Assembly (NCBI GenBank): GCA_043767805.1
Contig: JAYUGC010000173.1
Coordinates: forward strand, 1 to 21,715
Reading direction: 5' to 3'
DNA length: 21,715 nucleotides
DNA from: Pseudomonadota bacterium
Lineage (GTDB): Bacteria; Bdellovibrionota; FAC87; UBA2466
Shown here: piece after piece, positions 4,509-21,715 of the stretch
Layout of the letters: each line of letters begins with the position of its first letter
How positions within the stretch are numbered: position 1 is the first letter of the stretch
Made by a program: the position numbers and the translations under genes
The notes under the pieces: generated by a model
Seen by the model: only the letters and a program-made list of their open reading frames with translations
Told to the model about the DNA's origin: nothing
The model's database searches: none

Positions 4509-4577
4509 TTGTACCGGCGTAGGGCCTCGGTGCCCGTGTGGTTTTAGCTCGTTAGCGGATGCGGATGTGGAGCGTTT

Positions 4578-5639
4578 GTGAAGATGTGGAAGCAAATTTT
4601 TTCTTGTCTCGGAATTATCGCGGCTCTTGCCGTCTCGACCCCGAGTTTCGCTGATTTCGATTTCAGCTTCGGTGGCGGCTATGGAGGCGGCGGTGGTGGC
4701 GGATATAGTTACGGTGGCGGCGGTGACGCGTACGGCGGCTTGTACAACACCGGCGGCTATAACCTTCTGAATTTCGGTACCAGCATGTACGACACCTCGA
4801 GCTACCTCTCGAGCAACTACGGCTACGATTCTTCTTCTTACGGCGGAGGCTGCGGTTCTTTCTATAGCAGCTGCTCCGGCGGTTACAGCTCGGCCGGTCT
4901 TTACGGCAGTGATTACGGAATGTCGCCCTACCTCTACGGCGGCTCGGGCTCGTCGGGCATCAGCATCGACATCAACATCAATATTCTTTCCGGTCTCCTC
5001 GGCGGCATGGGCGGCAATAGCTGCAACGTTTGCTCCGGTGGGCTCGGCGGTTACGGCAGCATGGGCGGCTATGGCGGTTACGGCGGACTTTACGGCGATG
5101 TGGGTTGTTCCATCGGCTATTGCTCCGGTGGCTCGAGCCAGATGCCTTATGTGATGCCCGGCTATCCGTACTACGGCGGCAACAACAATTATTACGACAC
5201 CACCTACGGCAATTATTACGGCTACAACAACAATCAGTACAACTACGGCACCCCCGGCAGCTACATCGATATCAACATCCAGAACCCCTGGACGCCGTAT
5301 CAGCCTCCGGTTTACACGCCTCCGTACAACGGTTGCGGCATCGGCACGTACACTTGTCCCTCGGGACCGGTCACGCGCATCGATCCTCCCATTTATTATC
5401 CTCCGACGTATACGCCTCCGACGACGTATCCGCCGGTCAACGTGCCTCCGCGCGTTGTGCCCCCGTCGCATGACCCGGGAATTCCGGGCGTGCCTTTGAC
5501 GCCGTACTATCCGCCGACGTACGTGCCCCCGACGTACACGCCGGTACCGACCCCGGTTCCTCAGAACCCGGTGTCGAACCCGAAATATGTGCCCACGCCT
5601 CCCACGCGGTTTCAGATTCCGCGCGGAGCGAAAAGATGA
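4578..5639 (+). CDS. Secreted low-complexity protein (Gly/Tyr/Ser/Asn-rich with Cys pairs, then Pro/Thr/Tyr-rich tail)
   Basis: 353-aa ORF with signal peptide (...AVSTPSFA/DF) and GGAG RBS before the GTG (alternative ATG at 4584). Third codon positions are consistently C/T (GGC, TAC). Confidence 0.8.
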   Translation: MKMWKQIFSCLGIIAALAVSTPSFADFDFSFGGGYGGGGGGGYSYGGGGDAYGGLYNTGGYNLLNFGTSMYDTSSYLSSNYGYDSSSYGGGCGSFYSSCSGGYSSAGLYGSDYGMSPYLYGGSGSSGISIDININILSGLLGGMGGNSCNVCSGGLGGYGSMGGYGGYGGLYGDVGCSIGYCSGGSSQMPYVMPGYPYYGGNNNYYDTTYGNYYGYNNNQYNYGTPGSYIDINIQNPWTPYQPPVYTPPYNGCGIGTYTCPSGPVTRIDPPIYYPPTYTPPTTYPPVNVPPRVVPPSHDPGIPGVPLTPYYPPTYVPPTYTPVPTPVPQNPVSNPKYVPTPPTRFQIPRGAKR

Positions 5640-5657
5640 CGAGGCTTGGGTAGAAAA

Positions 5658-5819
5658 AAGAGCTTCGTAGAGCGAGCAACAGAGATACGAAGGGTCGGCC
5701 TCTGAACGACTCGCCTCCTCCCCCTATATGTGGCCCCGAAACACACATATCTTGTCGGGCGGAGGCCGACCCTTCCCTTTCTCTGACCGCTTCAAAAAAT
5801 TCAAACATTTCAAGCTCTT
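5658..5819. ncRNA. Candidate structured RNA element (nested long stem-loop) between the Gly/Tyr-rich gene and dksA
   Basis: Perfect 14-bp stem 5689-5702/5762-5775, plus helices 5707-5710/5754-5757, 5726-5732/5744-5750, 5680-5685/5780-5785 and 5658-5665/5812-5819. No family recognised. Confidence 0.35.
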
Positions 5820-5893
5820 CTGACTTGATTGACTTTGAACGCGTATTTTGCGAGATTTGGCTGTCTTTTTTCCCAAACAGGGTGGGTACCAGA

Positions 5894-6277
5894 ATGAAAA
5901 AAACGGATGTAGAGAAGCTCAAAGGGATGTTGGAGCAGCAGCTCAAGATTTTGCAGGCGGATGCCGGCAACCTCAATGCGGTCACGAATTCCGCCGCACT
6001 CGCGGACGTGAATGACCAAGCCAGCCTCGAGTCCGAGCGTTCTTTCGAGCTTCGGATTAAAGACCGGGAGCGCAAGCTCATCGGGAAAGTTCAGGATGCT
6101 CTCCGCAAGATGGCGGACGGCAGCTATGGAACGTGCGAGTCCTGCGGAGAAGCCATCTCCGTGAAGCGGCTCCAGGCGCGCCCTGTAACCACCTATTGCA
6201 TCAACTGCAAGGCGGAGCAGGAAGCCGAAGAGAAGCGGGAAGAAGTTCTCGCTCAGTCTTCCGAACGCGCTCTGTAA
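5894..6277 (+). CDS. dksA: RNA polymerase-binding transcription factor DksA
   Basis: Coiled-coil tip DVNDQA (DxxDxA), RIKDRERKLI, and zinc finger CESC...RLQARP..CINC. ATG at 5894 preferred over TTG at 5825. Confidence 0.93.
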   Translation: MKKTDVEKLKGMLEQQLKILQADAGNLNAVTNSAALADVNDQASLESERSFELRIKDRERKLIGKVQDALRKMADGSYGTCESCGEAISVKRLQARPVTTYCINCKAEQEAEEKREEVLAQSSERAL

Positions 6278-6493: not shown

Positions 6494-6509
6494 TGGCACG
6501 GCCCGTGCT
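6494..6509 (+). promoter_or_regulatory. Sigma-54 (-24/-12) promoter for the metallopeptidase lipoprotein operon
   Basis: TGGCACGGCCCGTGCT has a perfect -24 box and GG-N10-GC spacing, about 30-50 bp before the likely starts. Confidence 0.65.
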
Positions 6510-6537
6510 TTGTAGTGCCTCCAGAAGGTTCTTGTTG

Positions 6538-7683
6538 ATGCGGATACGTGGGCTCATGTTGCGACGGCTGATTTGGAGCCTGGGGTTTTTCACCCTGGGT
6601 TGCTCCACCGATATTTTATCGGGACCCGTGAGCGTGGAAGTGATTCGCCCCGTGGCTGGCCAGAAGTGCCAGTACGTCGTCGCTCCCGCGACCCTCGTTA
6701 CCCTGTCCTCCCTCAGAACGATGACTGGCGCCTTGGGCGCCGTAGTCCACTCGGGCGAGAACGTGGGAGCCCGCCCCGACATTTTGGAAAAACAAGACGG
6801 CCTGGATACGGTCGACACCCAGTTCGCGAGCTCGGGCGGGACTTACTCGGCTTTGGATCTAGACTCGCTATACGCCGCGAGCCTCTATTTCGCGGTGGAG
6901 ACGGCGCACTTGACCATGTCTCGCCTCGATCCAGTGGCGGACATGCCCGCGACCGTTCCGGAGTTCGCCAAACGCACCCGTATCGTGCATGAAGCGAAAC
7001 GGACGTTCGGGGAGTACGGCAAGGATCCCGAAGTAACTGACAACGCGGAGTACTTCTCGAAACGTATCGGTACCGGCGCCGGCAGCTTCGTCCTGAACTA
7101 CCTTTTCTCCTATCCGACGGTGGCGGTTAAAGACATTCCCCTCGGACTCAACCTCGGCATCATGGCGCACGAGTACACCCATCTAGTGATGCGCCACCGT
7201 TTCTACGAGCCGGGCATTGTGAAAGACGTCGGCGTCGCCTCGGGTAAGCCGACCATGAACACACTGCAATCTCTCGACGAAGGCCTCGCCGATTACTTCG
7301 GTTTCATGGCGTCGGGCGATCCTTCCTTCTTCCTTTGCAGCTATCCCAACGAGAATCGCGATCTGAAAGTACCCAAAAGTTTCTCCGACGAAATCGTTAC
7401 GAGCATTGCAAGCGGTTCCAAGTTCGATTCCCACGAAGGAGGTGCCGTTTTCGCCGCCATCAATTACGAGATCGGCGCCAAAATCGGATTCGACATCAAT
7501 GGGACTTTTCTGATCCGTTTGATGAATGGACTACTCACCTGCTCGAGCACGACTTCGGGCACGAGCCTCTCCTTTAACTTCAAGGACGTAGCCACTTGCC
7601 AAGCGTCCCTCGCGGACTCGCGCTATCAGAGCGTCATTCGCGAGGTCTACAACGCCCGGCTGGGCAGCTACGGAGGCATCTGA
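6538..7683 (+). CDS. Putative lipoprotein zinc metallopeptidase (gluzincin, M4/M36-like)
   Basis: Lipobox-like FTLG/C, DNAEY, AHEYTH (HExxH) and SLDEGLADYFG (third-ligand ExxxD). Start is 6538 or 6556; the 6505 start overlaps the sigma-54 box. Confidence 0.7.
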   Translation: MRIRGLMLRRLIWSLGFFTLGCSTDILSGPVSVEVIRPVAGQKCQYVVAPATLVTLSSLRTMTGALGAVVHSGENVGARPDILEKQDGLDTVDTQFASSGGTYSALDLDSLYAASLYFAVETAHLTMSRLDPVADMPATVPEFAKRTRIVHEAKRTFGEYGKDPEVTDNAEYFSKRIGTGAGSFVLNYLFSYPTVAVKDIPLGLNLGIMAHEYTHLVMRHRFYEPGIVKDVGVASGKPTMNTLQSLDEGLADYFGFMASGDPSFFLCSYPNENRDLKVPKSFSDEIVTSIASGSKFDSHEGGAVFAAINYEIGAKIGFDINGTFLIRLMNGLLTCSSTTSGTSLSFNFKDVATCQASLADSRYQSVIREVYNARLGSYGGI

Positions 7684-8435
7684 TGCAATCCCGCTGGCTG
7701 ATACTTTTTTGTCTGATCTTTGCGTTCTTGGCCGAGGCGCACCCGAAGCTTCCTCTCATGCCCGAACGCGAGCCCGAAGTGCCCCTGACTTTGGATGAGT
7801 CTTTGGAAGCTCTGCCCTCCAAAGGGCGGTTTGCTTTTCTGAACTCCCAGGAAGATAAACGGCCGCGTTCGCGCGCGCCCAGCTACGCGCGCAGTTATAC
7901 TCCTGAGCATTCGAGCCGATCTTCCTTGCTCCTCGGCGTCGAAGTGGGAACCGTCGGCCGGGCGAACTCGACGAGCTCCGATGCGCTGGGCTTGAAACTT
8001 CTGATGGGAGGCCGCGCTTTCCTGATCCTGCCCGTCGCGCCTCGCTGGTATGTGAAGCCCTCTCTTGGATTTTTCTTCCGCAGGGAATCTGACGCCAAAG
8101 TCGGGATTACCGAGCACATGGCCGAAGGCGGCTTGAACGTTCAGTATGCCTTGAGCCAGGGCGGCGGCATGACCTGGCTCATTGGCGTCGTGAACCGGGT
8201 GGAAATGTCTTTCAGTAAGACTTCCATCTCCGCGCTAACCGCGTCCGCGGCGCCGGCCGATACCTCCGACTCGAGCGGGATGCTCCTGCGTTACCGTTTA
8301 GGCCCGTCTTTAGGCTTTACTCATCGTTTGACACCGACCATTGGCCTCATGATGGACGCCGAAGTCACCTTCTCGTTCACCAAGCCGGTGAAGCCCTATG
8401 GCGGAATCGTCGGCGGCTTGATCTTCCGCCTGTAG
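7683..8435 (+). CDS. Hypothetical outer-membrane beta-barrel protein
   Basis: ATG overlaps the upstream TGA (TGATG). Signal peptide MQSRWLILFCLIFAFLAEA, amphipathic strands, C-terminal GGLIFRL. Confidence 0.65.
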   Translation: MQSRWLILFCLIFAFLAEAHPKLPLMPEREPEVPLTLDESLEALPSKGRFAFLNSQEDKRPRSRAPSYARSYTPEHSSRSSLLLGVEVGTVGRANSTSSDALGLKLLMGGRAFLILPVAPRWYVKPSLGFFFRRESDAKVGITEHMAEGGLNVQYALSQGGGMTWLIGVVNRVEMSFSKTSISALTASAAPADTSDSSGMLLRYRLGPSLGFTHRLTPTIGLMMDAEVTFSFTKPVKPYGGIVGGLIFRL

Positions 8436-8502: not shown

Positions 8503-8775
8503 CTAGTCCAAAAATTCTTTGAATTCCTTGCCGGCGCGGAAGCGGGGTACCCACATGGCGCGGATCTGGATGGGCTTACCCGTTTGCGGGTTGCGGCCCT
8601 TGCGCGCTTTCCGCTTGGAGCGGAGGAAAGTGCCGAATCCGATCAACCGGACGTCCTCGCCTTTTTTCAACGCTTTCTTCGTGGCGTCGATGGTGGCTTC
8701 CAGCACGCGCTGGCAATCCGCTTTAGTCAGATGGGTCTCTTCGGCAATTTTCGCGATCAGGTCGTTCTTGTTCAA
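8503..8775 (-). CDS. hup: DNA-binding protein HU
   Basis: MNKNDLI...GFGTF...RKGRNPQTG...VPRFRAGK. TTG start with GAGGAGG RBS. Confidence 0.95.
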   Translation of the reverse strand: MNKNDLIAKIAEETHLTKADCQRVLEATIDATKKALKKGEDVRLIGFGTFLRSKRKARKGRNPQTGKPIQIRAMWVPRFRAGKEFKEFLD

Positions 8776-8822
8776 GTTGTCCTCCTCAGAAGTTGTTGTC
8801 GAATCTCAAAAAAGAAGTTCAC

Positions 8823-8851
8823 AATATAGATAAGCGAGGATCATCGTGCAA
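8823..8851 (-). promoter_or_regulatory. Sigma-70-type promoter for HU
   Basis: Minus strand TTGCAC-17 nt-TATATT, about 48 bp upstream of the start. Confidence 0.6.
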
Positions 8852-10218: not shown

Positions 10219-10929
10219 TTAGAACGTCGGGAGGAAGAACGAAAGTCCGCCAAATACGGCGAAATTGCTCTTCATGGAACGGCTTCCGTACACCTGCGAC
10301 ATGACCACGTAATCGCGGAAGTCGAGGTTCAGAGCCATGGCGGAGTTCAGGAAAACGCGAAAGCCCATGCCGAAGTTGAGCATGGGATCGAAACCCGTTT
10401 TGACTACCGATTGCGTCGGCGCGGTGCTCGTGCCGGTGGAAACGAACTTGAGCGTCTCCGTGTTGGCGGCTCCGACGCCTGCCAGGAAATAGAGATCGAG
10501 GTGCATGACCTGGCGGCCGAAGAAGCGGATTTTTCCGTAAAGGGGAGACAAGACGAAGTTCGTGCCGAACATCATCTTGAGCTTCACCGTTTGCAGATTG
10601 GTGATGCCTTGGGCCTGAACGAGGTTGGTGGTGAAACCGGCCACCGTGGGAAAGGTGAGCATGGCATCGATGACTTCCCAGCCATAATGATCGCTCAAGT
10701 GCCAGGTGAGCCGCCCGCCCGCCATGACGTGATTAATGACGCTATCGTAAGGCATGACGCCGACCACGCCGCCCACTTCGAGCCGACCCGCCTTGTAATA
10801 AATCTTCTGGCGAACGACGGAGTTGACCGAGCGCTCGTAGTCCTTTTGCGGATCGCTCGCCGCGGAAACGGATCCAAAGGCACTCGAAGTAAAAATCAAG
10901 CTGACCAGACAGCCCAGGACGATTTTCAT
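10219..10929 (-). CDS. Outer-membrane beta-barrel protein, TIGR04565 (myxobacterial/Bdellovibrio GltA/B/H-like) type
   Basis: Signal peptide, VVRQKIYYKAGRLEV, PLYGKI, DLYFLAGVG, LDFRDY and C-terminal GLSFFLP match the remembered family pattern. Confidence 0.7.
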   Translation of the reverse strand: MKIVLGCLVSLIFTSSAFGSVSAASDPQKDYERSVNSVVRQKIYYKAGRLEVGGVVGVMPYDSVINHVMAGGRLTWHLSDHYGWEVIDAMLTFPTVAGFTTNLVQAQGITNLQTVKLKMMFGTNFVLSPLYGKIRFFGRQVMHLDLYFLAGVGAANTETLKFVSTGTSTAPTQSVVKTGFDPMLNFGMGFRVFLNSAMALNLDFRDYVVMSQVYGSRSMKSNFAVFGGLSFFLPTF

Positions 10930-11005: not shown

Positions 11006-13072
11006 TTAAAGAGAACTAACCGGGTCGACGTCGATGGCCATTTGGACGGGGTATTTCAGGCGCTCCGCGTAATCTTGCACGATGCGTAGCACGCTCTGCA
11101 GTTCGCGTACGGTGCCGCCCTTTACCATGCAGTGCCAGCGGTAGAGATTCTTGATCTTGGCGATGGGCGCTTCCGCGGGACCGGTCACTTCACATTGCCA
11201 GCCGTGCTTTTTCACCGTTTCGCGAACGCCGGCCGCAACGCTCTGGGCAAACTGCTCCACCTTCGCCGCATTGGAGTGCTGAAAACGGATCATGGCGAGC
11301 CGCTGAAACGGCGGGAACCCAAAGCGCTCCCTGCCCGCTAGCTCCGATCGGAAAAAATCCTCATCGCGATGCTCGGCGGCCGCTTGAAGTACGGGGTGAT
11401 CGGGGTTCAAAGTTTGAATGACGACTTCACCCGCAACTTCCGCCCGGCCCGCGCGCCCGGAGACTTGAGTCAAAATCTGAAACGTCCGCTCGTAAGCGCG
11501 GAAATCCGGCTGATTCAGGCTCGCGTCCGCGACCAAAATGCCGACGAGCGCAATGCCCGGAAAATCGTGCCCCTTGGCGATCATCTGCGTGCCGACGACG
11601 ATGTCGACTTCCCGCCGGACGATGGCGTTCAAGACGTCTTCCAAGTCCTTACGGGTTTTGATCACGCTGCGATCCATGCGCGCGGTCCGGGCTTTCGGGA
11701 AAATCTCCTTGATCGATGCCTCGACTTGCTCGGTGCCGAGACCCAGCTCTTTGAGCGAATTTCCCTGACACTCGCTGCAAAGGCACGGCGGCTCTATCTC
11801 CACGGCGCAGTAATGGCATTTCAAAAGCGGCGGATAGCGGTAGTAGGTCAAAGCGACGTCGCAGTTCTTGCAACGCCAGGTGTGCCCGCAGTCCGCGCAA
11901 AATAGAAAATGCGCGAAACCCAAGCGGTTCAAAAACAGCATGACCTGATGGCCGTTGGTCAGCGCCTGGTTCATTTTCGAGACGAGAACCTTACTGAGCC
12001 ACGGGTGCTGATAGGAATAAGCCGCTTCCTTGACCCGCAAGTCCACGAAAGTGGTCTTCGGCATGGGCCGTTCCATCACGCGCTTCAAGAGGCGGATGTG
12101 GGCGTATTTCCCCTGACGGCTGTTGTAATAACTCTCGAGCGAAGGCGTCGCCGAGCCGAGCACAACGCGCGCGCCGCAAAGCTTGGCGCGCACCACCGCG
12201 AGATCGCGAGCGTGATAGCGAAGGGAATCTTCCTGCTTGTAAGACGTCTCGTGCTCTTCGTCGACGACGATGAGGCCGATGTCTCTAAGCGGCGCGAACA
12301 CCGCCGAGCGAGCTCCCACCACCACGCGCGCGATGCCCTTGCGAATGCGCTCCCACTGAACGAATCTTTCCTTTGGGGTGATGTCGCTATGAAGGACTGC
12401 GACTTTGCCCGGAAACCGGCTCGAGAAACGGCCGAGTAGCTGCGGGGTCAAAGCGATTTCCGGCACGAGCACGATGGCGCCTCGTCCTTCGGCGAGCACT
12501 TTCTCCAAGACCGCCATGTACACTTCGGTCTTTCCGCTTCCGGTCACGCCTTGCAGAAGAACCGGGCGAGTCTCGGCCCAGACACCGTCGACGGCTTTCG
12601 CCTGCTCGTCGGTCAAGACCGGTTTCGGCACCGCCGAAGCCGTGAGCCCCATTTCGGCGAGCCCCTTATCGTCGGCGGCAAGCGCCTCGATTTTCTTGCG
12701 GCGGGCGTCGGTAAGCTTGAAATACTGTTTCGGCAGGGCCGAGGTCATCACGTCGCCCAAGGGATGGCAGTAATACTCCGCCGTCCATTTCAGAAAGCGA
12801 AAGGTCTGCTCGTCGAGCAGGGGCTCGGCGAAAAGCACGCGCTCGACCGCTTTGAGCTTAGTCTCTGCGACATCCGACTTTTCCGGAAAGCCTAGAACCA
12901 CCGCGTGGGTAGCCTTGTTACGGAAGAAGACTTCGACCACGCTTCCAATCTGAAGATCCGCCAGCTGCGACTCACTAGCTTTGTAGTGGAACGAGCCGTG
13001 GACTCTCGTGGGGATCGCCACATCAACTAGGCCCATCGGAAGGTCGGGGATTAGCGTGGGCTCCTCGATCAT
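11006..13072 (-). CDS. priA: Primosomal protein N' (replication restart helicase)
   Basis: GVTGSGKTEVY, VPEIALTPQ, DEEHE, SATPSLES, four CxxC pairs, GTQMIAKGHDF, QVSGRAGR and C-terminal DVDP. Confidence 0.97.
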   Translation of the reverse strand: MIEEPTLIPDLPMGLVDVAIPTRVHGSFHYKASESQLADLQIGSVVEVFFRNKATHAVVLGFPEKSDVAETKLKAVERVLFAEPLLDEQTFRFLKWTAEYYCHPLGDVMTSALPKQYFKLTDARRKKIEALAADDKGLAEMGLTASAVPKPVLTDEQAKAVDGVWAETRPVLLQGVTGSGKTEVYMAVLEKVLAEGRGAIVLVPEIALTPQLLGRFSSRFPGKVAVLHSDITPKERFVQWERIRKGIARVVVGARSAVFAPLRDIGLIVVDEEHETSYKQEDSLRYHARDLAVVRAKLCGARVVLGSATPSLESYYNSRQGKYAHIRLLKRVMERPMPKTTFVDLRVKEAAYSYQHPWLSKVLVSKMNQALTNGHQVMLFLNRLGFAHFLFCADCGHTWRCKNCDVALTYYRYPPLLKCHYCAVEIEPPCLCSECQGNSLKELGLGTEQVEASIKEIFPKARTARMDRSVIKTRKDLEDVLNAIVRREVDIVVGTQMIAKGHDFPGIALVGILVADASLNQPDFRAYERTFQILTQVSGRAGRAEVAGEVVIQTLNPDHPVLQAAAEHRDEDFFRSELAGRERFGFPPFQRLAMIRFQHSNAAKVEQFAQSVAAGVRETVKKHGWQCEVTGPAEAPIAKIKNLYRWHCMVKGGTVRELQSVLRIVQDYAERLKYPVQMAIDVDPVSSL

Positions 13073-13917
13073 CGATAGCCCAAAAGTATTTTGAGAACCG
13101 GCTCGGCGTTGGAAGACACGCTACTTGTGCGCGCCGCCTGAAATGACTTGCGAAATTCGGCGAGCTGATTAGCTTTCAGGGCTCGCACCGCGGGCACGGT
13201 GGAAACGATGCGCTCGACTCCTTGGGCGGTGAACGTCATGCGCTTGGGGTAAAGACCGATGCCGCCCGGCGCTTTGGTGAAGCCCGCGAAATCCCAGGTG
13301 GTGGTGCCCGCCCCTTCACGCCACTCGAGCCGGGAAATGCCCTTGAAATCGTCGTCAAAATAGACGGCCTTACGAACGGAGCCTTCATCGAGACCGACCA
13401 CCGCGATGGCCGCGCCCGTGGTGAGCCGCGCGAAATAGATATCGTCGTGGAGCTTGAAGAAGCTGCGGCTCTTCCAGGTATTCGGATCGCCCTTGGGCGT
13501 GTACCCGGAGTTAAAAGTAATGAGCTGCTCCCGGTGCACGAACTGCTCGTTCAAAAGCTGGCGGAGAAAATCCTCCGGCGAGGCGCCGACGAAATACTTC
13601 ATGAAGGCGCTCGAGCGCGACGCGAGGGACTGCCCGTTCACCACATAACTTTGCCGTTCCCAAGTGGCACCGATCGTCTGGCCTTGCGTCTTCCAGATCA
13701 CGTGAACGGTGTTGCCTTCGGCCACGATGCGCTCGTCCACCACCGCCTGCTGCCCGCTCGGAAGCTGGATCTTATGGGATAGGACGACTTCCAGGCCCGA
13801 CTGCGGCTTTCGGCCCTCGTAGACGCTTTCGACCATTTCCCTTACGGGCGGGATGTAGCCGAAGGCCAGGCGCGAGAAAGCCAAAAAAACCAAGGCGAGT
13901 TTCGAGGCGTTTTTCAT
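13069..13917 (-). CDS. Hypothetical exported protein
   Basis: Signal peptide from ATG 13917 (MKNASKLALVFLAFSRLAFG). Its stop overlaps the priA start (ATGA). Confidence 0.7.
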   Translation of the reverse strand: MKNASKLALVFLAFSRLAFGYIPPVREMVESVYEGRKPQSGLEVVLSHKIQLPSGQQAVVDERIVAEGNTVHVIWKTQGQTIGATWERQSYVVNGQSLASRSSAFMKYFVGASPEDFLRQLLNEQFVHREQLITFNSGYTPKGDPNTWKSRSFFKLHDDIYFARLTTGAAIAVVGLDEGSVRKAVYFDDDFKGISRLEWREGAGTTTWDFAGFTKAPGGIGLYPKRMTFTAQGVERIVSTVPAVRALKANQLAEFRKSFQAARTSSVSSNAEPVLKILLGYR

Positions 13918-14114
13918 AGCAAGTAGTTTACCCGGCATCGCGTCCCACATCGAGTTCTTGAGACCAACACATCTAACCGAGCCACGTCAAAGAGTCGACC
14001 TGTGGAATTTTCCCCACAACCTGAGTGGGATTCACCCTCGTTTTGCCTCCGCGACAGCGCGCCAAGTCATGAAACAACAGCGTGGTTTCCGGCCTTTAGC
14101 CAAACCGAGGTTTC

Positions 14115-14147: not shown

Positions 14148-15104
14148 ATGACAGAAGACTTCTTCACTTCGCCTTACGGGTACCGGGTCCAGAAGACTAT
14201 CCGCAAGGAGATCCGTTTCGACGGCATCGGGCTTCACACCGGAGTGAAGACTTCCGTGCGGCTTTTGCCCGCGCCGCCCAATCACGGCTTAATTTTCGAG
14301 CGCATCGACATTCCCCTCTCACCGAAAATCAACGCCCACTATGACTCCGTGGTCTGCACGCGGCTCGCGACGACCTTGGGCTCGGCCGAAGACCCGCGCG
14401 TGCGCATTTCCACCGTGGAACATTTGCTGGCCGCGCTCTTTGGCTCCGGCATCACCAATGTGCTCATTCAGGTCGAGGGACCGGAAATCCCGATTTTGGA
14501 CGGCAGCGCGAGCGGTTTTCTCGACGGGATCTGGGATACGGGCATCGAGCCCCAGGCCTATTCCCACCGCGTCCTCAAAGTGATTAAGCCCGTAAAGGTG
14601 TACCAGCAAGGCGCCGTGTGCGAGCTCCTTCCGCGCGATCGCTTGCGCCTCACTACCTCCATCGATTTCGCTCATCCGAAGGTCGGGACCCAAACGTTTG
14701 CGTTGGAGCTGACGCCCCAGGCTTTCAAAGACGATATTTGCTCGGCCCGCACGTTTGGCTTCATGAAGGACCAGGAAGCGCTTCAGCGAAACAACCTCGC
14801 TTTGGGCGCGTCCACAGACAACGTCTTGGCTTTTTCCGACACCGACATCGTCAATCCGGGCGGCACCCGCTTTCCGGATGAGTGCGTCCGGCACAAGCTT
14901 TTGGACGCTTTGGGCGATCTCGCCCTCTGCGGCTGCTGGATCGAAGGCGAAATGGTGAGCTTCCGCGGGGGGCATTCCATCCACCTCGCCATGCTCCGCG
15001 CCCTTCGGGAACAGCCGACCCACTGGAAGCTCTTTTCTCCCGAGCCTTTGGCGCCTCTGCGCCCCACCCGGCCGACCCAGTTCGCGCCGATTTTCCTCTC
15101 CTAA
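14148..15104 (+). CDS. lpxC: UDP-3-O-acyl-N-acetylglucosamine deacetylase
   Basis: QKTI...GIGLHTG, STVEHLLAAL, EIPILDGSA, ARTFGF, HKLLDALGDL and GGH motifs. Confidence 0.96.
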   Translation: MTEDFFTSPYGYRVQKTIRKEIRFDGIGLHTGVKTSVRLLPAPPNHGLIFERIDIPLSPKINAHYDSVVCTRLATTLGSAEDPRVRISTVEHLLAALFGSGITNVLIQVEGPEIPILDGSASGFLDGIWDTGIEPQAYSHRVLKVIKPVKVYQQGAVCELLPRDRLRLTTSIDFAHPKVGTQTFALELTPQAFKDDICSARTFGFMKDQEALQRNNLALGASTDNVLAFSDTDIVNPGGTRFPDECVRHKLLDALGDLALCGCWIEGEMVSFRGGHSIHLAMLRALREQPTHWKLFSPEPLAPLRPTRPTQFAPIFLS

Positions 15105-15175
15105 AAACAGTTCCCATCTAACGCGTAGCAGAGTAGCGTTTTCCCCTCTGCTTACGGGCAGTTTCGGGGTGTTTT

Positions 15176-16381
15176 GTGGAAGGTTTGGAACCGGCCTTTG
15201 AGGTCGATTTCGCGAGGTTGCGACTCGCGAGATTGCGCAAAGTACAAAAAGAAATGGCCGCGCGCCAAATCGGCGTTCTCGTGCTCACCAATCCGGTCAA
15301 TATTCGCTACGCGACCGACGTTTCGGTCATGCCCATTTGGACCGCTTTGAATCTCGCCCGTTTCGCCGTCATTCCCGTGGAGGGCGACCCGGTGATTTTC
15401 GAGTACGGCAAAGCGCTCTTTCGCGCGACCGCCCTTTGGCCGACGTCGCGGCCCATTCGATCGTGGCAGCTGCGTTTTAGCCAATCCCAAGTTGAAGATA
15501 GCTCCCGCCAGTTCGCGAGCGAAGTGCATGGGCTCATGGCCGAGTGGGGAGTCGCGGGAAGCGCCATCGCGACGGACGTTCTCGATTGCCACGGCTTCAC
15601 GGCGCTTCAAGCTCTGGGCGTTCCGATCGTCGATGCCGATGGCCCGCTGGGCGCGGCCCACAAGATCAAAACTCCGGATGAGTTAGCGCTGCTCTCCCGA
15701 TCCTGTCGCGTCGCCGAAACGGCGCTTTCCGAAATGGAGCGCGCCATCGTTCCGGGGATCAGCGAGAATGAGCTACTCGGAACTTTTTGGGGCAAGATGC
15801 AGGCTTTGGGCGGAGAACATTGCAGCACCCGGCTCATCGTCTCGGGCGAGAAAACGAACCCGTGGTTTTATGAAGCGGGCGAACGGCGAGTGCAGACCGG
15901 AGATCTCGTCGGCATCGATACCGACATGGTCGGCCCCCACGGCTATCTCTGCGACATCTCCCGTACCTTTCTTTGCGGCGACAAGCCGAACGCCGATCAG
16001 TTAGAGGCGTACCGGGTCGCTTACGATTTCATTCAAGGCACGGTCCCGCTCTGCCGCCCGGATGTCAGCTACCGGGAAATCGTCGACAAAGCGCCGCGCT
16101 ACCCCGCGGAGTACGCCGAGCAAGGATACTCTTGCATGGTGCATGGAGACGGGATGGATGACGAACCGCCGTTTCTGCCCTTCCCCCACGACTTGCCGAA
16201 AGCCGTCGTGCCCGAAGGCCGGCTGGAAGCCGGCATGGTACTCAGCGTGGAATTTTACGCGGGCAAAAAAGGAAAGCGCGACGGCGTGAAGCTCGAAGAG
16301 CAGATCGTGGTGACCGCGAACGGCCCTCAACTCCTGTCTCGTTACCCTTACGACCAAAGCCTTTTGGGAGGCCACTCATGA
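15176..16381 (+). CDS. M24 (Xaa-Pro peptidase fold) metalloenzyme, DMSP lyase DddP-like
   Basis: NIRYATD, TRLIVSGEKTNPWFYE, DTDMVGPHGYLCDISRT, YSCMVHGDGMDDEPP, SVEFY and GVKLEEQ resemble the DddP subfamily. GTG start. Confidence 0.8.
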   Translation: MEGLEPAFEVDFARLRLARLRKVQKEMAARQIGVLVLTNPVNIRYATDVSVMPIWTALNLARFAVIPVEGDPVIFEYGKALFRATALWPTSRPIRSWQLRFSQSQVEDSSRQFASEVHGLMAEWGVAGSAIATDVLDCHGFTALQALGVPIVDADGPLGAAHKIKTPDELALLSRSCRVAETALSEMERAIVPGISENELLGTFWGKMQALGGEHCSTRLIVSGEKTNPWFYEAGERRVQTGDLVGIDTDMVGPHGYLCDISRTFLCGDKPNADQLEAYRVAYDFIQGTVPLCRPDVSYREIVDKAPRYPAEYAEQGYSCMVHGDGMDDEPPFLPFPHDLPKAVVPEGRLEAGMVLSVEFYAGKKGKRDGVKLEEQIVVTANGPQLLSRYPYDQSLLGGHS

Positions 16382-17949
16382 AGATCCGCCACTCGGTATT
16401 CTGGCCTCCGTTTCTGATGGTACTTGGCGCGCTCGCGCTGAATTTCCTCGATCCGGTTCGGTTTCTCGCTTGGGTCAACGGCCTCAATCAGTGGGTGCTC
16501 GGCCATTTCAGCACGTGGTTTGCCCTCTGTGGACTCGGTGCCATCGGGGTCGCGGTCGCGGTGTTCTTCTCGCCCATCGGAAAAACCAAAATGGGCGGAA
16601 CGGACGCGAAGCCGCTTCTGTCGTTTTTTAGCTGGGCTTGTGTCTCGGTCTGCGTGAATACCGGAGCGGGCATTCTGTTTTGGGGCATGGCCGAGCCGAT
16701 TTACCATCTGACCCAGCCGCCCGCTTCCTTACACCTCGTGCCCGGCTCCGCTCGCGCGGCCGAGTTCGCGATGTCGTCGCTTTTCATGCACTGGGCGTTC
16801 ACGCCCGCCGCGCTCTTTGCCATCCCCGGCCTGCTCTTCGGCTTGGTTTTTTACAATCTCGGTCTGCCCTTTTCCTTGAGCTCGTGTTTGCAGCCGCTGG
16901 TGGGCCCTCGCCTTCAAAAAAAGCTGAGCACGCCCATAGACGTCGTCGCGCTATACACTTTGGTTCTCGGCATGGCGGCGTCACTCGCCACGGGCGTGCT
17001 TACCGTCGCGGGCGGGATCAGTCACCTGACCGGCTGGGTGAGCGGGCCGATTCTGTGGATTGGGATTGGCATCGTCATCGTGGTGACTTTTCTAATCTCG
17101 GCAGCGCTCGGTCTCGATAAGGGCATCAAGAACCTGTCTCTCATCAATAGCTACTTTTTGATCTTTCTCGCCCTCTTCGTGCTGGTGACCGGCCTGCCCG
17201 CGATGGTGTTCTTCTTCGGAAAGCTGGGCTTGAGCGAGTACTTGCGGACGTTTCTCAGCCGCAGCCTATTTACCGAGTTCTCGGCAAACGATCCGTGGCC
17301 TCAGCAATGGCCCGTCTTTTACTGGGCTGTGTGGCTCGCTTGGGCGCCGATCTCGGCGGGCTTCCTGGGCCGCATCGGAGTCGGCTACACCGTACGCCAA
17401 TTCCTTTGGATAAACCTCGTCATCCCCGCCGTCTTTGCCATTGGTTGGATGGCCATTTTTGGCGGGACGTCTCTAGGTTTCGAAATGGGTCACCAGGGAG
17501 CGAGCCTCTCCGGTATTTTGACGAGCAGCGGTCCCGAAGCGCTTACCTATACGGTGCTCGCACGACTTCCTTGGTCGTCGGTCATCATTCCCATCTTTCT
17601 TGGACTCGCCGCGATTTCTTACGTCACCGCGGCGGACTCCAATACGGTCACCATGGCGGCCATGAGCACGACGGGCTTTACCGCGGACTCTCCGGAGCCG
17701 CCCCTTAGCTTGAAGATCATCTGGGGCGTTCTCGTGGGAACAGTCTCACTCGTCATGCTGGTCCGAAGCGGAATCGACGGCATCAAAACGCTGTCCTATT
17801 TGGGCGGCCTTCCTGCTCTCTTTTTTGAAATTGCGGCGGGAGCGAGCTTGATGGTGCTCGCTTGGGGCCCGGCCATCAAAGGTGCCATCGATAAATATTT
17901 CAAGAAGCCGAAACCAGAAGGAGACACAGTATGGAAAACCCCTGGGTAG
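16378..17949 (+). CDS. BCCT family (betaine/carnitine/choline) transporter
   Basis: About 12 TM segments. GILFWGMAEP, HW, GLDKGIKNLS, WPVFYWAVWLAWAP, GYTVRQF and VTAADS are BCCT signatures. ATGA overlap with the upstream gene. Confidence 0.92.
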   Translation: MKIRHSVFWPPFLMVLGALALNFLDPVRFLAWVNGLNQWVLGHFSTWFALCGLGAIGVAVAVFFSPIGKTKMGGTDAKPLLSFFSWACVSVCVNTGAGILFWGMAEPIYHLTQPPASLHLVPGSARAAEFAMSSLFMHWAFTPAALFAIPGLLFGLVFYNLGLPFSLSSCLQPLVGPRLQKKLSTPIDVVALYTLVLGMAASLATGVLTVAGGISHLTGWVSGPILWIGIGIVIVVTFLISAALGLDKGIKNLSLINSYFLIFLALFVLVTGLPAMVFFFGKLGLSEYLRTFLSRSLFTEFSANDPWPQQWPVFYWAVWLAWAPISAGFLGRIGVGYTVRQFLWINLVIPAVFAIGWMAIFGGTSLGFEMGHQGASLSGILTSSGPEALTYTVLARLPWSSVIIPIFLGLAAISYVTAADSNTVTMAAMSTTGFTADSPEPPLSLKIIWGVLVGTVSLVMLVRSGIDGIKTLSYLGGLPALFFEIAAGASLMVLAWGPAIKGAIDKYFKKPKPEGDTVWKTPG

Positions 17950-18731
17950 ACTTCATCGATCTCAAAAAATACCCGGTCGATGACCTGAACAACCCCTTGC
18001 GCGCGAAGCTCGTCGGCGAGTTCAAGTCCTCCCTGGAGCGCATGGGTGTTGCCGAAATCGAAGGCTTTCTGACCAAGACCGGAATCGAGCGGATAGTGCG
18101 CGAGTCGAGCGCCATCGAAGCCAAAGCCTTTCATAACGCTCTCGTCGGCAATGCTTACCTGGAAGATCCCGATCCGGCGCTTCCCGCGGACCACGCGCGC
18201 AAGATGACCGAAAAAACGGCGCTCGGCGCAATCGCCTACGATCAAATTCCAAGCGACCATCTCATCCGCCAGATTTACGAGTGGGACCCTTTGATGAAAT
18301 TCATCGGGGATATCGTCGGACTCGAAAAGATTTATCGCTACGGCGATCCCATGGGCGCGCTTAATATCGCCGTCATGAAGGACGGAGACTATCTGCGCTG
18401 GCACTTCGATCAGACCGATTTCGTGACCTCGCTCAGTATCCGGAACGCGGACAAGGGAGGCTACTTCGAGTATGCGCCGATGATCCGCACGCCGAATATG
18501 GAGAATTACGGCGCCGTGAAGTCGGTCATCCAAGGGAACCGGGACATGGTGCAGCTCGTCGAGAACAAGCCTGGGACTCTGGTACTTTTCAAAGGTCGTT
18601 ACTCCTTGCACCGAGTGACGCCCATCGAAGGAAAGACGAGTCGCCTCATGGGCCTCTTCGGCTACGACGCGAAACCCGGCACCCAAAGCAGCAACTATCT
18701 GAGACGCATTCGCTACGGACGGACTTTATGA
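17931..18731 (+). CDS. Fe(II)/2-oxoglutarate-dependent oxygenase, BesD/HalD-like fold (hydroxylase-type HxD)
   Basis: WHFD (HxD) ... GGYFEY ... PGTLVLFKGRYSLHRVTP ... R. GGAG RBS lies inside the BCCT 3' end. Confidence 0.8.
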   Translation: MENPWVDFIDLKKYPVDDLNNPLRAKLVGEFKSSLERMGVAEIEGFLTKTGIERIVRESSAIEAKAFHNALVGNAYLEDPDPALPADHARKMTEKTALGAIAYDQIPSDHLIRQIYEWDPLMKFIGDIVGLEKIYRYGDPMGALNIAVMKDGDYLRWHFDQTDFVTSLSIRNADKGGYFEYAPMIRTPNMENYGAVKSVIQGNRDMVQLVENKPGTLVLFKGRYSLHRVTPIEGKTSRLMGLFGYDAKPGTQSSNYLRRIRYGRTL

Positions 18732-20206
18732 AAGACCTAAAGCCTTGGCTCAAAACAGAAAAACGGCTCTACATCGGCGGCGCGTGGGTCGCCTCCGCCA
18801 AGGGCGCGAAGCTCGAGGCCATCAATCCCGCCACCGGCGAGATCCTGACCCGCATCTTCGAAGCGGGTGCCGATGACGTAGGTAAAGCGGCCGACGCCGC
18901 CCAAGAGGCTTTCCGCAAAGGCCCGTGGCGTAAGTTCACCCGCGCCGAGCGGGCGACGCGCATCCAGAGGCTCGGCCAGGTACTCCGATCCAATGCCGAG
19001 GAGCTCGCGACTTTAGAGACCTTGGACAACGGCAAAACCTACCTCGAGGCGCTTAACGACGATATGCCCGAGTCCGCGAACGTTTTCGATTATTACGCGG
19101 GCTGGATCGACAAACATTACGGCGAGTCGGTTCCCGTGGAGCAAGGCTTCGTCAACTTCACGAAGCACGAGCCCATCGGAGTTTGTGGCCTCATCGTTCC
19201 GTGGAACTTTCCCCTGCTCCTCGCGTGCTGGAAGCTCGCCCCGGCTTTGGCGATGGGAAACACCGTCGTCATCAAGCCTTCTCCTTTTACCTGCCTCTCG
19301 CTCATTCGGTTCGTCGAACTCGTGCACGAGGCGGGGATATTGCCGACCGGAGTTTTGAATCTCGTTACGGGTGGCAATGAAGCGGGCGAGGCGATGTCTC
19401 GCCATCCCCGCATCGACAAGCTCTCGTTCACGGGTTCCACCGCCGTGGGCAAGAAGATCGTCGAAGGGTCCGGGGCGTCCAACCTAAAGTCGCTGTCCCT
19501 AGAGCTGGGCGGTAAGTCTCCCAATATCATTTTCGACGACGTGAAGGATTTGGACGCGGTCATCAACCGCTCCTTCACCGCCATGTTCTCGCACAAGGCC
19601 GAGAAGTGCTCGGAGCCGACCCGCTTCCTGATTCAGGAAGGCGTCTACACTCGCGTCGCGGAGGCCTTGGCGAAAAAGGCCGAAGCCGTGATCTGTGGCG
19701 ATCCCTTCCATCCGCGCACTCAGCAGGGCGCGCAGTGCCACGAAGCGCATTTCCAGAAAATATTGAGCTACTGCGACATAGGCAAACAGGAAGGCGCGCA
19801 CCTTCTGGCTGGCGGCTCGCGCGACAAAAGCGCGGGCAACGAAAAAGGTCTCTTCATCCGTCCCACGATTTTTGGCGAAGTAAAGAGCAGCATGCGGATC
19901 GCCCGCGAGGAAATCTTCGGGCCCGTGCTCTGCTTGATCCGTTTCCGCGAGGAAGCCGAGGCCATCGAGATGGCCAACGATACGCCCTATGGGCTCGCGG
20001 CCGGTGTCTATACCGGCGATGCGACGAGAGCGCATCGGGTCGCGGATCGCTTGGAAGCGGGCATGGTTTTCGTAAATCATTACGGCTGCTATGATTTCGC
20101 GAGCCCCTTCGGCGGGATCAAACAAAGTGGCTGGGGCAAGGAAATGGCCCTGCACTCGCTCGCGGCTTATACGAGAACGCGCTCCATTTGGATTCGCTAC
20201 GAATAG
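18728..20206 (+). CDS. NAD(P)-dependent aldehyde dehydrogenase
   Basis: PWNFP, FTGSTAVG, LELGGKSP, catalytic Cys in EKCSE, EEIFGPV and PFGGIKQSG. ATGA overlap with the upstream gene. Confidence 0.95.
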   Translation: MKDLKPWLKTEKRLYIGGAWVASAKGAKLEAINPATGEILTRIFEAGADDVGKAADAAQEAFRKGPWRKFTRAERATRIQRLGQVLRSNAEELATLETLDNGKTYLEALNDDMPESANVFDYYAGWIDKHYGESVPVEQGFVNFTKHEPIGVCGLIVPWNFPLLLACWKLAPALAMGNTVVIKPSPFTCLSLIRFVELVHEAGILPTGVLNLVTGGNEAGEAMSRHPRIDKLSFTGSTAVGKKIVEGSGASNLKSLSLELGGKSPNIIFDDVKDLDAVINRSFTAMFSHKAEKCSEPTRFLIQEGVYTRVAEALAKKAEAVICGDPFHPRTQQGAQCHEAHFQKILSYCDIGKQEGAHLLAGGSRDKSAGNEKGLFIRPTIFGEVKSSMRIAREEIFGPVLCLIRFREEAEAIEMANDTPYGLAAGVYTGDATRAHRVADRLEAGMVFVNHYGCYDFASPFGGIKQSGWGKEMALHSLAAYTRTRSIWIRYE

Positions 20207-21415
20207 ATGCCCAAGATTACCGACATCAAGCTCGTGCCCGTTCAAGGCGCTTACTACTACGAGGACATTGCCGCGCTTCAGGCGGCATCGGTCCCCGAAG
20301 CTGAGCGCTGGTTCGCGCCCGCAGTCACGCCAGGATTTCAGCGCGTGCGCGAGATAGCCGAAGCGGTTTCCGTGGGCTTGGTCCTCGATTCTGGCCGCGT
20401 TTACTGGGGCGATGCCATCGCCGTCTCTTACTCTGGAAAAGCGGGACGTAAAGGCGTGTTTCGATCGAAAGCGGGCATAGAGGAGATGACCCGTCTGCTC
20501 CGTCCCGCTCTCCTAGGCGAAGACGTCGCCTCATTTCGTAAGCTCGCCGAGAACGTCGACGCGCTCGATCTACACAACGCCTCCCGATACGGCGCGAGCC
20601 AAGCGCTGCTTCAAGCCACGGCCGAAGTGGCGGGCGTTACCATGACTCAAGTCCTTTGCCGCGAGTGGGCTTTGCCGCTCGTCGCCTCTCCCATTCCGTT
20701 ACAAGGATCTTGCGGAAACGATCGCTACGACAACGCCGATAAGATGATCGCTAATCGCTTAGCGGCGCTGCCTCATACCCAGGTCGACGATATCCCGGCC
20801 CAGCTCGGTTTGCGGGGCGAAGTTTTACTCGAGTACGTGCGGTGGCTGAAAAAACGTATCCAGGCGTTTGGTTTCGCGGGTTATTCGCCCACCCTGCACC
20901 TCGACGTCCACGGAAGTATCGGTCAGATCTTCAAAGGGGACATTTCCCGGGTAGCAGAGTACCTGAGGACTCTCGAAGCGGAGGTCGCGCCTTTTGCTTT
21001 GCGCATGGAAAGCGTCTTCATCGCAACCACCCGTCAGGAACAGATCGACTGTCTCTTTAAGCTCAAAGTGCGGCTGGCGGAGGCGGGCTCGGCGACAAAA
21101 TTAGTTGCCGACGAGTGGGCCAACACGAAAGCCGACATCGCGGAGTTCGCGCGCTCGGGCGCCGTGCACATGATTCACGTAAAGATGCCCGACTTGGGCA
21201 GCCTTCACCAAAGTCTCGAAGCCGTTTTGGACTGCCGCAAGCAGGGCGTGGAAACCTTACTCGGCGGAAGCTGCATCGAAACCGACATCTCCACGCGCGC
21301 CTCAATCCACGTGGCCCTCGCCAGCCGCCCAAACGTATTTCTCACCAAGCCCGGCATGGGCGTAAACGAAGCCATCGCCTTCTGCCGCAACGAAATGTCC
21401 CGCACCCTCAGCTAA
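20207..21415 (+). CDS. mal: Methylaspartate ammonia-lyase homologue (enolase superfamily), divergent active site
   Basis: TPGF..VRE.AEAVSV, YSG..GR, RYGASQALL, NDRYDNADKMI, LPH, HLDVHG, ADEWANT, KMPDLG, GGSCIETD and KPGMG. Starts immediately after the ALDH stop. Confidence 0.88.
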   Translation: MPKITDIKLVPVQGAYYYEDIAALQAASVPEAERWFAPAVTPGFQRVREIAEAVSVGLVLDSGRVYWGDAIAVSYSGKAGRKGVFRSKAGIEEMTRLLRPALLGEDVASFRKLAENVDALDLHNASRYGASQALLQATAEVAGVTMTQVLCREWALPLVASPIPLQGSCGNDRYDNADKMIANRLAALPHTQVDDIPAQLGLRGEVLLEYVRWLKKRIQAFGFAGYSPTLHLDVHGSIGQIFKGDISRVAEYLRTLEAEVAPFALRMESVFIATTRQEQIDCLFKLKVRLAEAGSATKLVADEWANTKADIAEFARSGAVHMIHVKMPDLGSLHQSLEAVLDCRKQGVETLLGGSCIETDISTRASIHVALASRPNVFLTKPGMGVNEAIAFCRNEMSRTLS

Positions 21416-21494
21416 AAGGTGTGTGGATACTTTTAGCCACGGCAAATCCCGTGCCGGCATTGGCTAAAAGTATCCACACACCTTTTAGCTGAGG
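21406..21494. repeat. Perfect 34-bp inverted repeat with 21-nt spacer and internally palindromic arms (REP/MITE-like; possible bidirectional terminator)
   Basis: CCTCAGCTAAAAGGTGTGTGGATACTTTTAGCCA (21406-21439) and its exact reverse complement (21461-21494). Includes both convergent TAA stops. Confidence 0.9.
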
Positions 21495-21715
21495 AGTTGG
21501 CGGAGGGTTTGGTGGTCGATGTTGGAGCCGGAGAGGATGATGGCTGTCTTTTGGAAGGCGAGCTTGTCTTTGAGCTTGAGGAGACCCGCGAGTCCGGCTG
21601 CGCCCGCTCCTTCGGCGAGATTGTGGGTGGTCCTAAGGAGCAGCCTCAAGGCGAAACGGATCTCGTCGTCTGTGACCGTAATAAAATCGTGGAGGCCGGT
21701 CTTCAAGGCGCCGAA
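21485..21715 (-). CDS. PLP-dependent threonine/serine dehydratase family protein, C-terminal part (truncated by window edge)
   Basis: VTDDEI...LAEGAGAAGLAG...AIILSGSNID is the fold-type II dehydratase C-terminal motif. Frame is open to the window end. Confidence 0.85.
   Translation of the reverse strand, partial: FGALKTGLHDFITVTDDEIRFALRLLLRTTHNLAEGAGAAGLAGLLKLKDKLAFQKTAIILSGSNIDHQTLRQLLS

Follow-up and report, generated by a model that had tools for sequence, protein, structure and literature searches.

This report concerns a 21,715-nt stretch of bacterial DNA, contig JAYUGC010000173.1 of assembly GCA_043767805.1, hereafter the window, and a set of five genes near its end. On the plus strand, five open reading frames (ORFs) run in one direction from 15176 to 21415 and overlap or abut one another (Table 1). 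They encode an M24-family protein, a betaine/choline/carnitine transporter (BCCT), a 2-oxoglutarate (2OG) oxygenase, an aldehyde dehydrogenase (ALDH), and a lyase resembling methylaspartate ammonia-lyase (MAL). This five-gene set is a genuine operon. The M24 and BCCT genes share an ATGA at 16378-16381, and the oxygenase and ALDH genes share another at 18728-18731, both read directly. The oxygenase ATG at 17931 precedes the BCCT stop TAG at 17947-17949, which gives a 19-nt overlap, and the TAG of the ALDH gene is followed without a gap by the ATG of the MAL-like gene (20204-20209). An earlier note on this DNA, made from the sequence alone, had described five co-oriented genes with these overlaps and this abutment, and the ORF coordinates and junction reads bear it out. 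Pfam and NCBIfam scans confirmed its family calls for all five proteins, with three refinements: the M24 protein scores below the DddP cut-off, the oxygenase carries the HxD motif of a hydroxylase, and the amine pocket of the MAL-like lyase is remodelled.

Table 1. Coordinates of the operon genes and adjoining features in the window
Feature	Position	Strand	Description
M24	15176-16381	+	401 aa, GTG start
BCCT	16378-17949	+	523 aa
2OG oxygenase	17931-18731	+	266 aa
ALDH	18728-20206	+	492 aa
MAL-like lyase	20207-21415	+	402 aa
Intergenic gap, possible promoter region	15105-15175	+	71 nt, lpxC stop to M24 start
Perfect inverted repeat	21406-21494		34-nt arms at 21406-21439 and 21461-21494, 21-nt loop

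Predicted functions of the five proteins

The oxygenase is the anchor gene of the system. It matches the Pfam family HalD (PF23169) with 41.7 bits against a cut-off of 26, and its AlphaFold2 model, built from a 79-sequence alignment, has a pLDDT of 95.8. A Foldseek search with this model places HalD, HalB, BesD, HalA, and the BesD-family lysine hydroxylase 7JSD at the top with a probability of 1.00; TM-scores to the BesD/HalD structures are 0.61-0.71 at 14-17% identity. When the oxygenase profile was run against PDB sequences, only chance-level matches came back (ArgRS, E 0.0029; 6GEM, E 0.0037). Residues H158, D160, H227, and R238 are invariant in the 79 sequences. In halogenases of the BesD family, the iron carboxylate ligand is replaced by Gly or Ala (HxG/A). 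Because H158-x-D160 is invariant, the window oxygenase is of the hydroxylase type, and its HxD motif rules out a halogenase reading. Members of the BesD/HalD family typically act on the C4 and C5 (gamma and delta) carbons of free amino acids, and the descriptions of the Foldseek matches include Lys and Orn complexes. None of the 1180 oxygenase relatives found at E <= 1e-3 is informatively named, being listed as 'hypothetical protein' or, once, '2OG-Fe(II) oxygenase superfamily'. Automatic cluster names call the family 'putative HalD/BesD family halogenase', which is probably wrong for these oxygenases.

The MAL-like lyase contains the Pfam domains MAAL_N and MAAL_C. It scores 380.9 bits with TIGR01502, above the cut-off of 286.15, and automatic annotation would therefore call it MAL. 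Relative to the MAL structure 1KKO, it keeps D238, E273, D307, K331, and C361, replaces T360 with Ser, and carries the changes Q73S, Q172S, Q329H, F170Q, Y356L, and C310A. Passages of one MAL study name Q73 and Q172 as amino-group ligands, assign Q329, H194, and Mg to the C4 carboxylate or enolate, and describe a hydrophobic pocket of L384, F170, and Y356 in which L384 touches the methyl group (PMC7241714). Among the 23 MAL-like homologues from the oxygenase loci described below, D238, E273, D307, and K331 are identical in all, and the Q73S and Q172S signature is found in 22 as well as in the window enzyme, at identities down to 34%; the exception is locus L032. The locus homologues also have Gln or His in place of F170 and Leu or Ile in place of Y356 while keeping L384, so the hydrophobic methyl pocket of MAL is not preserved. 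By its predicted pocket residues, the window lyase is not a methylaspartate ammonia-lyase.

The MAL family as a whole yields 685 hits at E <= 1e-3 among 1.84 billion representative sequences. Of the best 150 hits, 93 are full-length, and these include 14 with the S/S/H pocket signature and 18 with Q/Q/(Q or H). Other signatures occur among the family proteins P0122-P0271, including I/S/Q in five and T/Q/Q in four. The family is annotated uniformly, yet these last two signatures suggest that it holds further unrecognised specificities.

The ALDH matches Pfam Aldedh with 548.5 bits, and a PDB search places ALDH2/ALDH1 and betaine aldehyde dehydrogenase (BADH) nearest. A true-BADH reading is ruled out by scores below the curated cut-offs of the BADH models (514.1 against 668.6 for TIGR01804 and 493 against 593 for NF009725). 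Pocket signatures were compared in 37 ALDHs from the oxygenase loci and the window enzyme, with ALDH2 numbering taken from an alignment to 4FR8. The window ALDH carries D120, E124, K301, C302, and S303. All 38 enzymes have Lys at position 301, which precedes the catalytic Cys302, together with Ser or Thr at 303, Glu or Asp at 124, Asp at 121, Ser or Cys at 296, Gly at 457, Tyr at 459, and Asp or His at 460; position 120 is Asp or Glu in 35 of the 38. According to passages of PMC11362210, ALDH7 holds the amino and carboxylate groups of aminoadipate semialdehyde or aminoadipate by ion pairs with Glu121 and Arg301, and its Thr303 makes a hydrogen bond to the product. No precedent for carboxylate binding by an Arg124/Arg301 pair turned up in the literature searched. 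An acidic channel entrance guides cationic aldehydes in plant aminoaldehyde dehydrogenases, as described in parts of PMC10648994 and PMC11362210. By analogy, the window ALDH would oxidise a zwitterionic aldehyde of the amino-acid-semialdehyde type.

The BCCT matches PF02028 with 377.7 bits over profile positions 1-480 of 485. It falls below the NCBIfam equivalog cut-offs (glycine betaine, 285.8 against 650; BetT, 211; CaiT, 185) and is presumed to be the importer of the solute.

The M24 protein matches Pfam Peptidase_M24 with 104.5 bits, along with Creatinase_N, and the solved structures closest to it are those of DddP (4RZY, 4S00, 4S01, and 4B28), at 206 bits. A true-DddP reading is ruled out by its score of 257.6 bits with the NCBIfam DddP model (NF043017), whose cut-off is 600; the homologue in locus L055 scores 263.4, and DoeA models give the window protein 27-30 bits only. 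Residues D295, D297, D307, H371, D377, E406, E421, W95, and Y366 of 4RZY are all identical in the window protein, and we take them to be metal ligands, the catalytic base Asp, and substrate contacts. The M24 protein thus appears to keep the full predicted active site of the DddP type, and it probably cleaves a related beta-onium carboxylate.

Gene neighbourhood in other genomes

A scan of one genome per species gave 126 pattern matches to the oxygenase, of which 111 were confirmed. From these, the top 80 were retained, each with up to 10 kb of flanking sequence on a side, and neighbours of the oxygenase were identified by clustering the surrounding ORFs and by running the window proteins against the loci in tblastn. 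A lyase is present at 72 of these 80 loci: a MAL-like lyase at 26 and a lyase of the Lyase_1 family, nearest to aspartate ammonia-lyase, at 46. An ALDH occurs at 39 of 80 and a BCCT at 18 of 80. With the OpuAC-fused ATP-binding cassette (ABC) importers of four further loci (L018, L032, L055, and L070), a betaine-type transporter is found at 22 of 80. An M24 gene is present at five of 80, namely L001-L003, which are cut by contig ends, L008, and L055. The conserved unit is the oxygenase and the lyase; the M24 gene, found in few lineages only, is accessory. Absence of co-occurrence in other genomes would have counted against the earlier note, but L001-L003 and L008 contain all five genes.

The order M24-BCCT-oxygenase-ALDH-MAL is repeated in L001-L003, which are labelled Pseudobdellovibrionaceae or Deltaproteobacteria and have 61-73% oxygenase identity to the window; L008 has a different order. 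Adjacent BCCTs lie on either side of the oxygenase and are 28-78% identical to the window BCCT. The linkage of oxygenase and lyase spans records labelled as several phyla, and the operon core of importer, oxygenase, ALDH, and lyase is found again in many bacteria of soil and fresh water. Among the eight loci that have no lyase, the contig ends less than 2 kb downstream of the oxygenase in L007, L010, L023, L025, and L039; L018, L070, and L072 have room downstream, yet carry none. Locus L072 (2245-7658), labelled Leptospiraceae, combines an alkaline phosphatase, the oxygenase, a BCCT, and a family III (CaiB-like) CoA-transferase, with neither ALDH nor lyase.

A quick maximum-likelihood tree of 81 oxygenases has two branches. 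One, of 30 sequences (SH-aLRT 99), comprises 26 that are MAL-linked and four without a lyase label. The other, of 51, comprises 46 that are aspartase-linked, four without a lyase label, and L032, where a divergent MAL-like gene lies on the opposite strand. Lyase type changes once on this tree, which makes the replacement a single event. The ALDH pocket signature is identical in both lyase branches. L026 and L051 are labelled as the Polynucleobacter group, yet fall inside the Oligoflexales/Bdellovibrionota oxygenase branch, through either gene transfer or misassigned contigs.

The aspartase-like lyases have the Lyase_1 fold and score 314-456 bits against a cut-off of 510 for the aspartate ammonia-lyase subfamily. 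Motifs were counted in 40 ORFs longer than 330 aa. GGAGTS is replaced by GGG[S/G/A/E]I[A/G], which turns T101 into Ile (Phe in one), in 39 of 40. SQSTND becomes SQST[A/S][D/E], with Ala or Ser for N142 (39/40), and RT[H/Q]LQDA becomes RTC..., with Cys at residue 188 (39/40). GSSxMP becomes GSS[I/F/M]F, with Phe for M321, in 36 of 40, plus one SSSIF. The few of the 40 that depart from these patterns are broken ORFs. T187, K324, N326, and the catalytic SS-loop GSSxxxxKxNP are kept. A passage from a study of aspartase assigns His188 and Asn142 to contact with the amine group and T187, M321, K324, and N326 to the lining of the carboxylate pocket (PMC11744663). Both of the unrelated lyase folds therefore keep the residues for succinate binding and elimination and replace the contacts to -NH3+. 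Because both replace them, the leaving group would be bulkier than ammonia or would have no N-H donors.

Aspartase-linked loci differ in gene content. Thirty-seven of the 46 rows belong to one Binataceae-like clade and are not independent observations; here the genes for oxygenase and lyase overlap as a unit of two, and neither an ALDH nor a transporter is encoded less than 10 kb away. Obscuribacterales account for six loci, with the order oxygenase-lyase-ALDH in five and a contig that ends inside the lyase in L060. The order oxygenase-lyase-ALDH-BCCT is found in L048 and L076, and in L055 an aspartase-type lyase and an M24 gene are divergent from an oxygenase-ALDH-OpuA group.

The Binataceae-like loci (L033-L067 and others like them) carry a predicted lipoprotein of ~350 aa with a GWSNG serine-hydrolase motif, co-oriented with the oxygenase and ~100-150 bp upstream of it. 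The example at L065:8852-9904 has a weak Esterase_PHB match of 22 bits. Other neighbours in this clade are a PNPOx-like protein, an epimerase, and PBP1; the Binataceae-like neighbours look like lineage synteny and offer no substrate clue. Further hydrolases occur close to the system: an alpha/beta hydrolase in L022, a SASA esterase in L055, and a GDSL lipase in L070. Such neighbours may point to a precursor that is an ester or a lipid, or their position may be coincidental.

A proposed route to fumarate and its rivals

From the observed gene coupling, folds, neighbourhood, and residue signatures, we infer an order of steps, a chemistry, and a type of substrate. The operon is proposed to encode a catabolic route in which a zwitterionic, betaine-like solute is imported and its four-carbon skeleton ends as fumarate, a reading to which we give a probability of about 0.5. 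The solute would enter through the BCCT or, in other genomes, through an OpuA-type ABC importer. The oxygenase would then hydroxylate the gamma-carbon of a 2-(N-modified amino)-4-X-butanoate, where X is O, N, or S, and the resulting hemiacetal or hemiaminal would collapse to an N-modified aspartate beta-semialdehyde. This zwitterionic aldehyde would be converted by the ALDH to an N-modified aspartate. Finally, the MAL-fold lyase, or the aspartase-fold lyase in the other branch of the family, would take the C3 proton and expel the modified nitrogen to yield fumarate and an amine.

The replacement of one lyase by the other supports this reading, as the MAL-like and aspartase-like enzymes have unrelated folds and both families give fumarate from aspartate-type substrates. 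Two unrelated kinds of betaine-type transporter, BCCT and the OpuAC-fused ABC importer, adjoin the system. Binding-protein-dependent ABC systems only import, and the OpuA-type importers of four loci thus favour catabolism. The earlier note had suggested uptake of an onium compound followed by hydroxylation, aldehyde oxidation, and elimination, a scheme that the pockets, transporters, and neighbourhood support.

Homoserine betaine is the head group of the betaine lipid diacylglyceryl-trimethylhomoserine (DGTS) and a compatible solute of cyanobacteria. Either free or as the DGTS-derived glyceryl ether, it is the leading substrate candidate and would be converted to N,N,N-trimethylaspartate and then to trimethylamine (TMA) and fumarate. 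Its status as a documented compatible solute is stated in a passage of bioRxiv 10.1101/2021.03.10.434842, citing Pade 2016. Ectoine is the second candidate; hydroxylation at ring C6 would lead to N-acetimidoyl-aspartate, which would be split to acetamidine and fumarate. The evidence does not choose between homoserine betaine and ectoine. The most specific form of the proposal is that the operon represents the first catabolism of homoserine betaine, in which the oxygenase breaks the C4-O bond or oxidises the C4 alcohol, the ALDH yields N,N,N-trimethylaspartate, and a TMA-forming lyase, invented twice on the MAL and aspartase folds, releases fumarate. This form is tentative and, taken as a whole, rather unlikely.

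Several observations weigh against the proposed route or some part of it. The MAL-like pocket loses the aromatic residues F170 (to Gln/His) and Y356 (to Leu/Ile) and does not resemble a classical trimethylammonium cage, which disfavours a trimethylammonium group; the aspartase-like pocket turns hydrophobic, which favours one. At 38 loci, 37 of them Binataceae-like, the oxygenase and lyase stand alone, with neither an ALDH nor a transporter in the 10 kb around them, so that the ALDH step must be supplied elsewhere or the step order is different. This two-gene form is the main difficulty for the proposed order. The two lyase branches might also use different substrates. Pointers to the ligand are missing: no riboswitch was found upstream of the operons in the window and 14 scanned loci, nor was there a regulator that indicates one. 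In addition, residue roles, including those of aspartase T101 and the DddP residues, were transferred from homologues.

The two-gene form keeps alive an order in which the lyase acts first. An imported N-substituted aspartate with a cationic substituent would be split to fumarate and a primary amine, after which hydroxylation of the amine-bearing carbon by the oxygenase would release ammonia and an aldehyde for the ALDH. This order explains the 38 loci without an ALDH, where a general ALDH could finish the route, and the enlarged amine pockets of both lyases suit an N-alkyl leaving group. It is nonetheless unlikely: natural N-substituted aspartates are not known to bear an onium group, and the Lys beside the catalytic Cys in all 38 ALDHs suggests a carboxylate on the aldehyde, which forces an extra assumption. 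Alternatively, the leaving group may be lost at the oxygenase, with C4 hydroxylation of a 4-onium or 4-amino 2-aminobutanoate giving aspartate semialdehyde, aspartate, and then fumarate. The substrate could be S-methylmethionine, 2,4-diaminobutyrate or its N-gamma-methylated forms, azetidine-2-carboxylate, or canavanine, and dimethyl sulfide (DMS), an amine, or another group would be released. Such a route shares the enzyme logic and the transporters of the preferred one, fits an ALDH pocket that also suits unmodified aspartate semialdehyde, and gives the DddP-like M24 protein a thematic tie to DMS-releasing chemistry. Plain aspartate needs no remodelled lyase, yet the residues for NH3+ are replaced in 22 of 23 MAL-like and 39 of 40 aspartase-like enzymes, and aspartate semialdehyde is a central metabolite for which no dedicated ALDH is needed; release at the oxygenase is accordingly judged improbable.

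A route from carnitine or gamma-butyrobetaine is very unlikely. In this case, the oxygenase would act like the Rieske enzyme CntAB and cleave the C4-N bond, while malate or succinate would come from the ALDH and the lyase would dehydrate D-malate. The acidic ALDH2 positions 120 and 124 suggest a cationic aldehyde, but malate semialdehyde has no cation; residue 188 of the aspartase-like lyases is Cys, whereas fumarase uses His188 as its catalytic acid; and the structure descriptions mark BesD-family enzymes as amino-acid enzymes. The layout of BCCT, oxygenase, and ALDH does match that of carnitine-to-TMA clusters, and the CaiB-like CoA-transferase of L072 adjoins the oxygenase and BCCT. Least probable of all is a biosynthetic direction, in which the lyase adds an amine to fumarate to form an N-substituted aspartate, or a merely fortuitous juxtaposition of the genes. 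The MAL and aspartase reactions are reversible, and the earlier note had left the direction open; those of the oxygenase and ALDH are effectively irreversible, and binding-protein-dependent ABC importers take the place of the BCCT at four loci. Chance juxtaposition is countered by a linkage that holds in records labelled as several phyla.

If the betaine-to-fumarate route is correct, it would provide a new aerobic path from a betaine-type solute to fumarate and two new specificities on well-studied lyase scaffolds, which biocatalysis values for making N-substituted aspartates. The annotations 'methylaspartate ammonia-lyase', 'aspartate ammonia-lyase', and 'halogenase' would be corrected, and soils and fresh waters may contain an unrecognised oxygen-dependent source of TMA or other volatile methylamines. 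The oxygenase family is sizeable, with more than 1000 relatives and with 111 confirmed matches in the one-genome-per-species set, and none is informatively named. In line with the earlier note, no described pathway for this gene set was found by literature search, although prior work is possible in subscription journals, which lay mostly outside the search. The literature searched also contained no catabolism of homoserine betaine or betaine lipids with these genes. The route is most likely undescribed, though its enzyme superfamilies and its logic of import, oxygenase, ALDH, and lyase are familiar.

Surroundings of the operon and comparison with known systems

GC content is even over the window at 0.55-0.60. 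Upstream of the operon lie lpxC (14148-15104) and, on the opposite strand, priA, whose start overlaps by 4 nt with a minus-strand ORF of 293 aa (13069-13950) that has no Pfam match. The ORFs at 3479-4297, 4386-5471, 5437-6081, 6505-7683, 7596-8435, and 8519-8833 also have no Pfam match, and 10219-10929 encodes a beta-barrel outer-membrane protein with a myxobacterial-type OMP domain. Glutamate mutase, which the earlier note had reported absent from the operon, was not found among the window ORFs scanned for families, several of which have no Pfam match at all; the 80 loci were not checked for it.

The gap between lpxC and the M24 gene contains no recognisable element. Promoter and terminator scans did no better than shuffled sequence, with 0 sigma-70-like sites observed in 14900-21715 against 1.9 expected and 10 terminator matches against 8.9. 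An Rfam search of 14800-15400 at E <= 1 returned one chance-level match only, of 15.9 bits on the minus strand. The riboswitch scan of the window and 14 loci returned only two tRNAs and the purine riboswitch of L021. The latter (L021:13830-13926, 63.4 bits) comes right after the MAL-like gene, opens the next transcription unit, and is unrelated to the system.

The large inverted repeat that the earlier note had seen at the end of the operon is present, and its arms are 100% complementary. The arm sequence matches the window only twice, at the two arms themselves, with 0 matches expected from shuffles. Its fold has a predicted energy of -77.5 kcal/mol (z = -13.85), and none of 200 shuffles was as stable. 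Two genes converge here, the MAL-like gene and one whose C-terminus, judged by eye, looks like that of a pyridoxal phosphate-dependent threonine dehydratase, and both stop codons fall within the repeat. The repeat holds the last codons and stop (..CTCAGCTAA) of both genes, and both proteins end in ..LS. No T-run follows the repeat. The homologous operons of L001, L003, and L008 are not followed by this repeat, and L002 has only an unrelated 18-nt repeat (83%) downstream; as it is not kept in these relatives, the repeat was dropped as part of the system. It may be a bidirectional transcript-end hairpin or a recently acquired palindromic element.

Two known routes share the general plan of the proposed pathway. 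Both ectoine degradation (the M24 hydrolase DoeA/EutD, DoeB, DoeD, and the ALDH DoeC) and the carnitine-to-TMA route (CntAB with an ALDH and a BCCT) combine solute import with an ALDH and end in a C4 dicarboxylate. They start with an M24 enzyme or an oxygenase, as the window system does, but neither has an Fe/2OG oxygenase or a C-N lyase.

The single proteins each resemble a characterised enzyme and differ from it in specific ways. The window M24 protein shares its fold and the positions of the metal ligands, D377, W95, and Y366 with DddP (4RZY, 4B28), which is a lyase of dimethylsulfoniopropionate. Its N-terminus is ~46 residues shorter, with 401 aa against a 447-aa chain and an alignment that starts at DddP residue 53. 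The window ALDH shares with ALDH7 a basic residue before the catalytic Cys, Ser or Thr after it, and an acidic 120-124 segment. The basic residue is Arg301 in ALDH7 and Lys in the window enzyme; the likeness is one of pocket logic only, and the match of the acidic segment to Glu121 is approximate.

The oxygenase has the fold of the BesD/HalD family (6NIE, 7U6H, 7U6J, 7JSD) and matches its Pfam model, but it carries HxD where the halogenases have HxG/A, and sequence identity is 14-17%. Its genomic partners, unlike those of BesD/HalD, are catabolic enzymes and importers. The oxygenase-linked aspartase-like lyases share the Lyase_1 fold, SS-loop, T187, K324, and N326 with AspA/AspB, and have Ile, Ala/Ser, Cys, and Phe in place of T101, N142, H/Q188, and M321. 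The window lyase has the two-domain enolase-superfamily fold of MAL with its Mg ligands, base K331, and C1-carboxylate contacts. It differs from MAL in having Ser for both amino ligands Q73 and Q172, His for Q329, and an altered methyl pocket. MAL is partnered by glutamate mutase, whereas the window lyase is partnered by an oxygenase and an ALDH.

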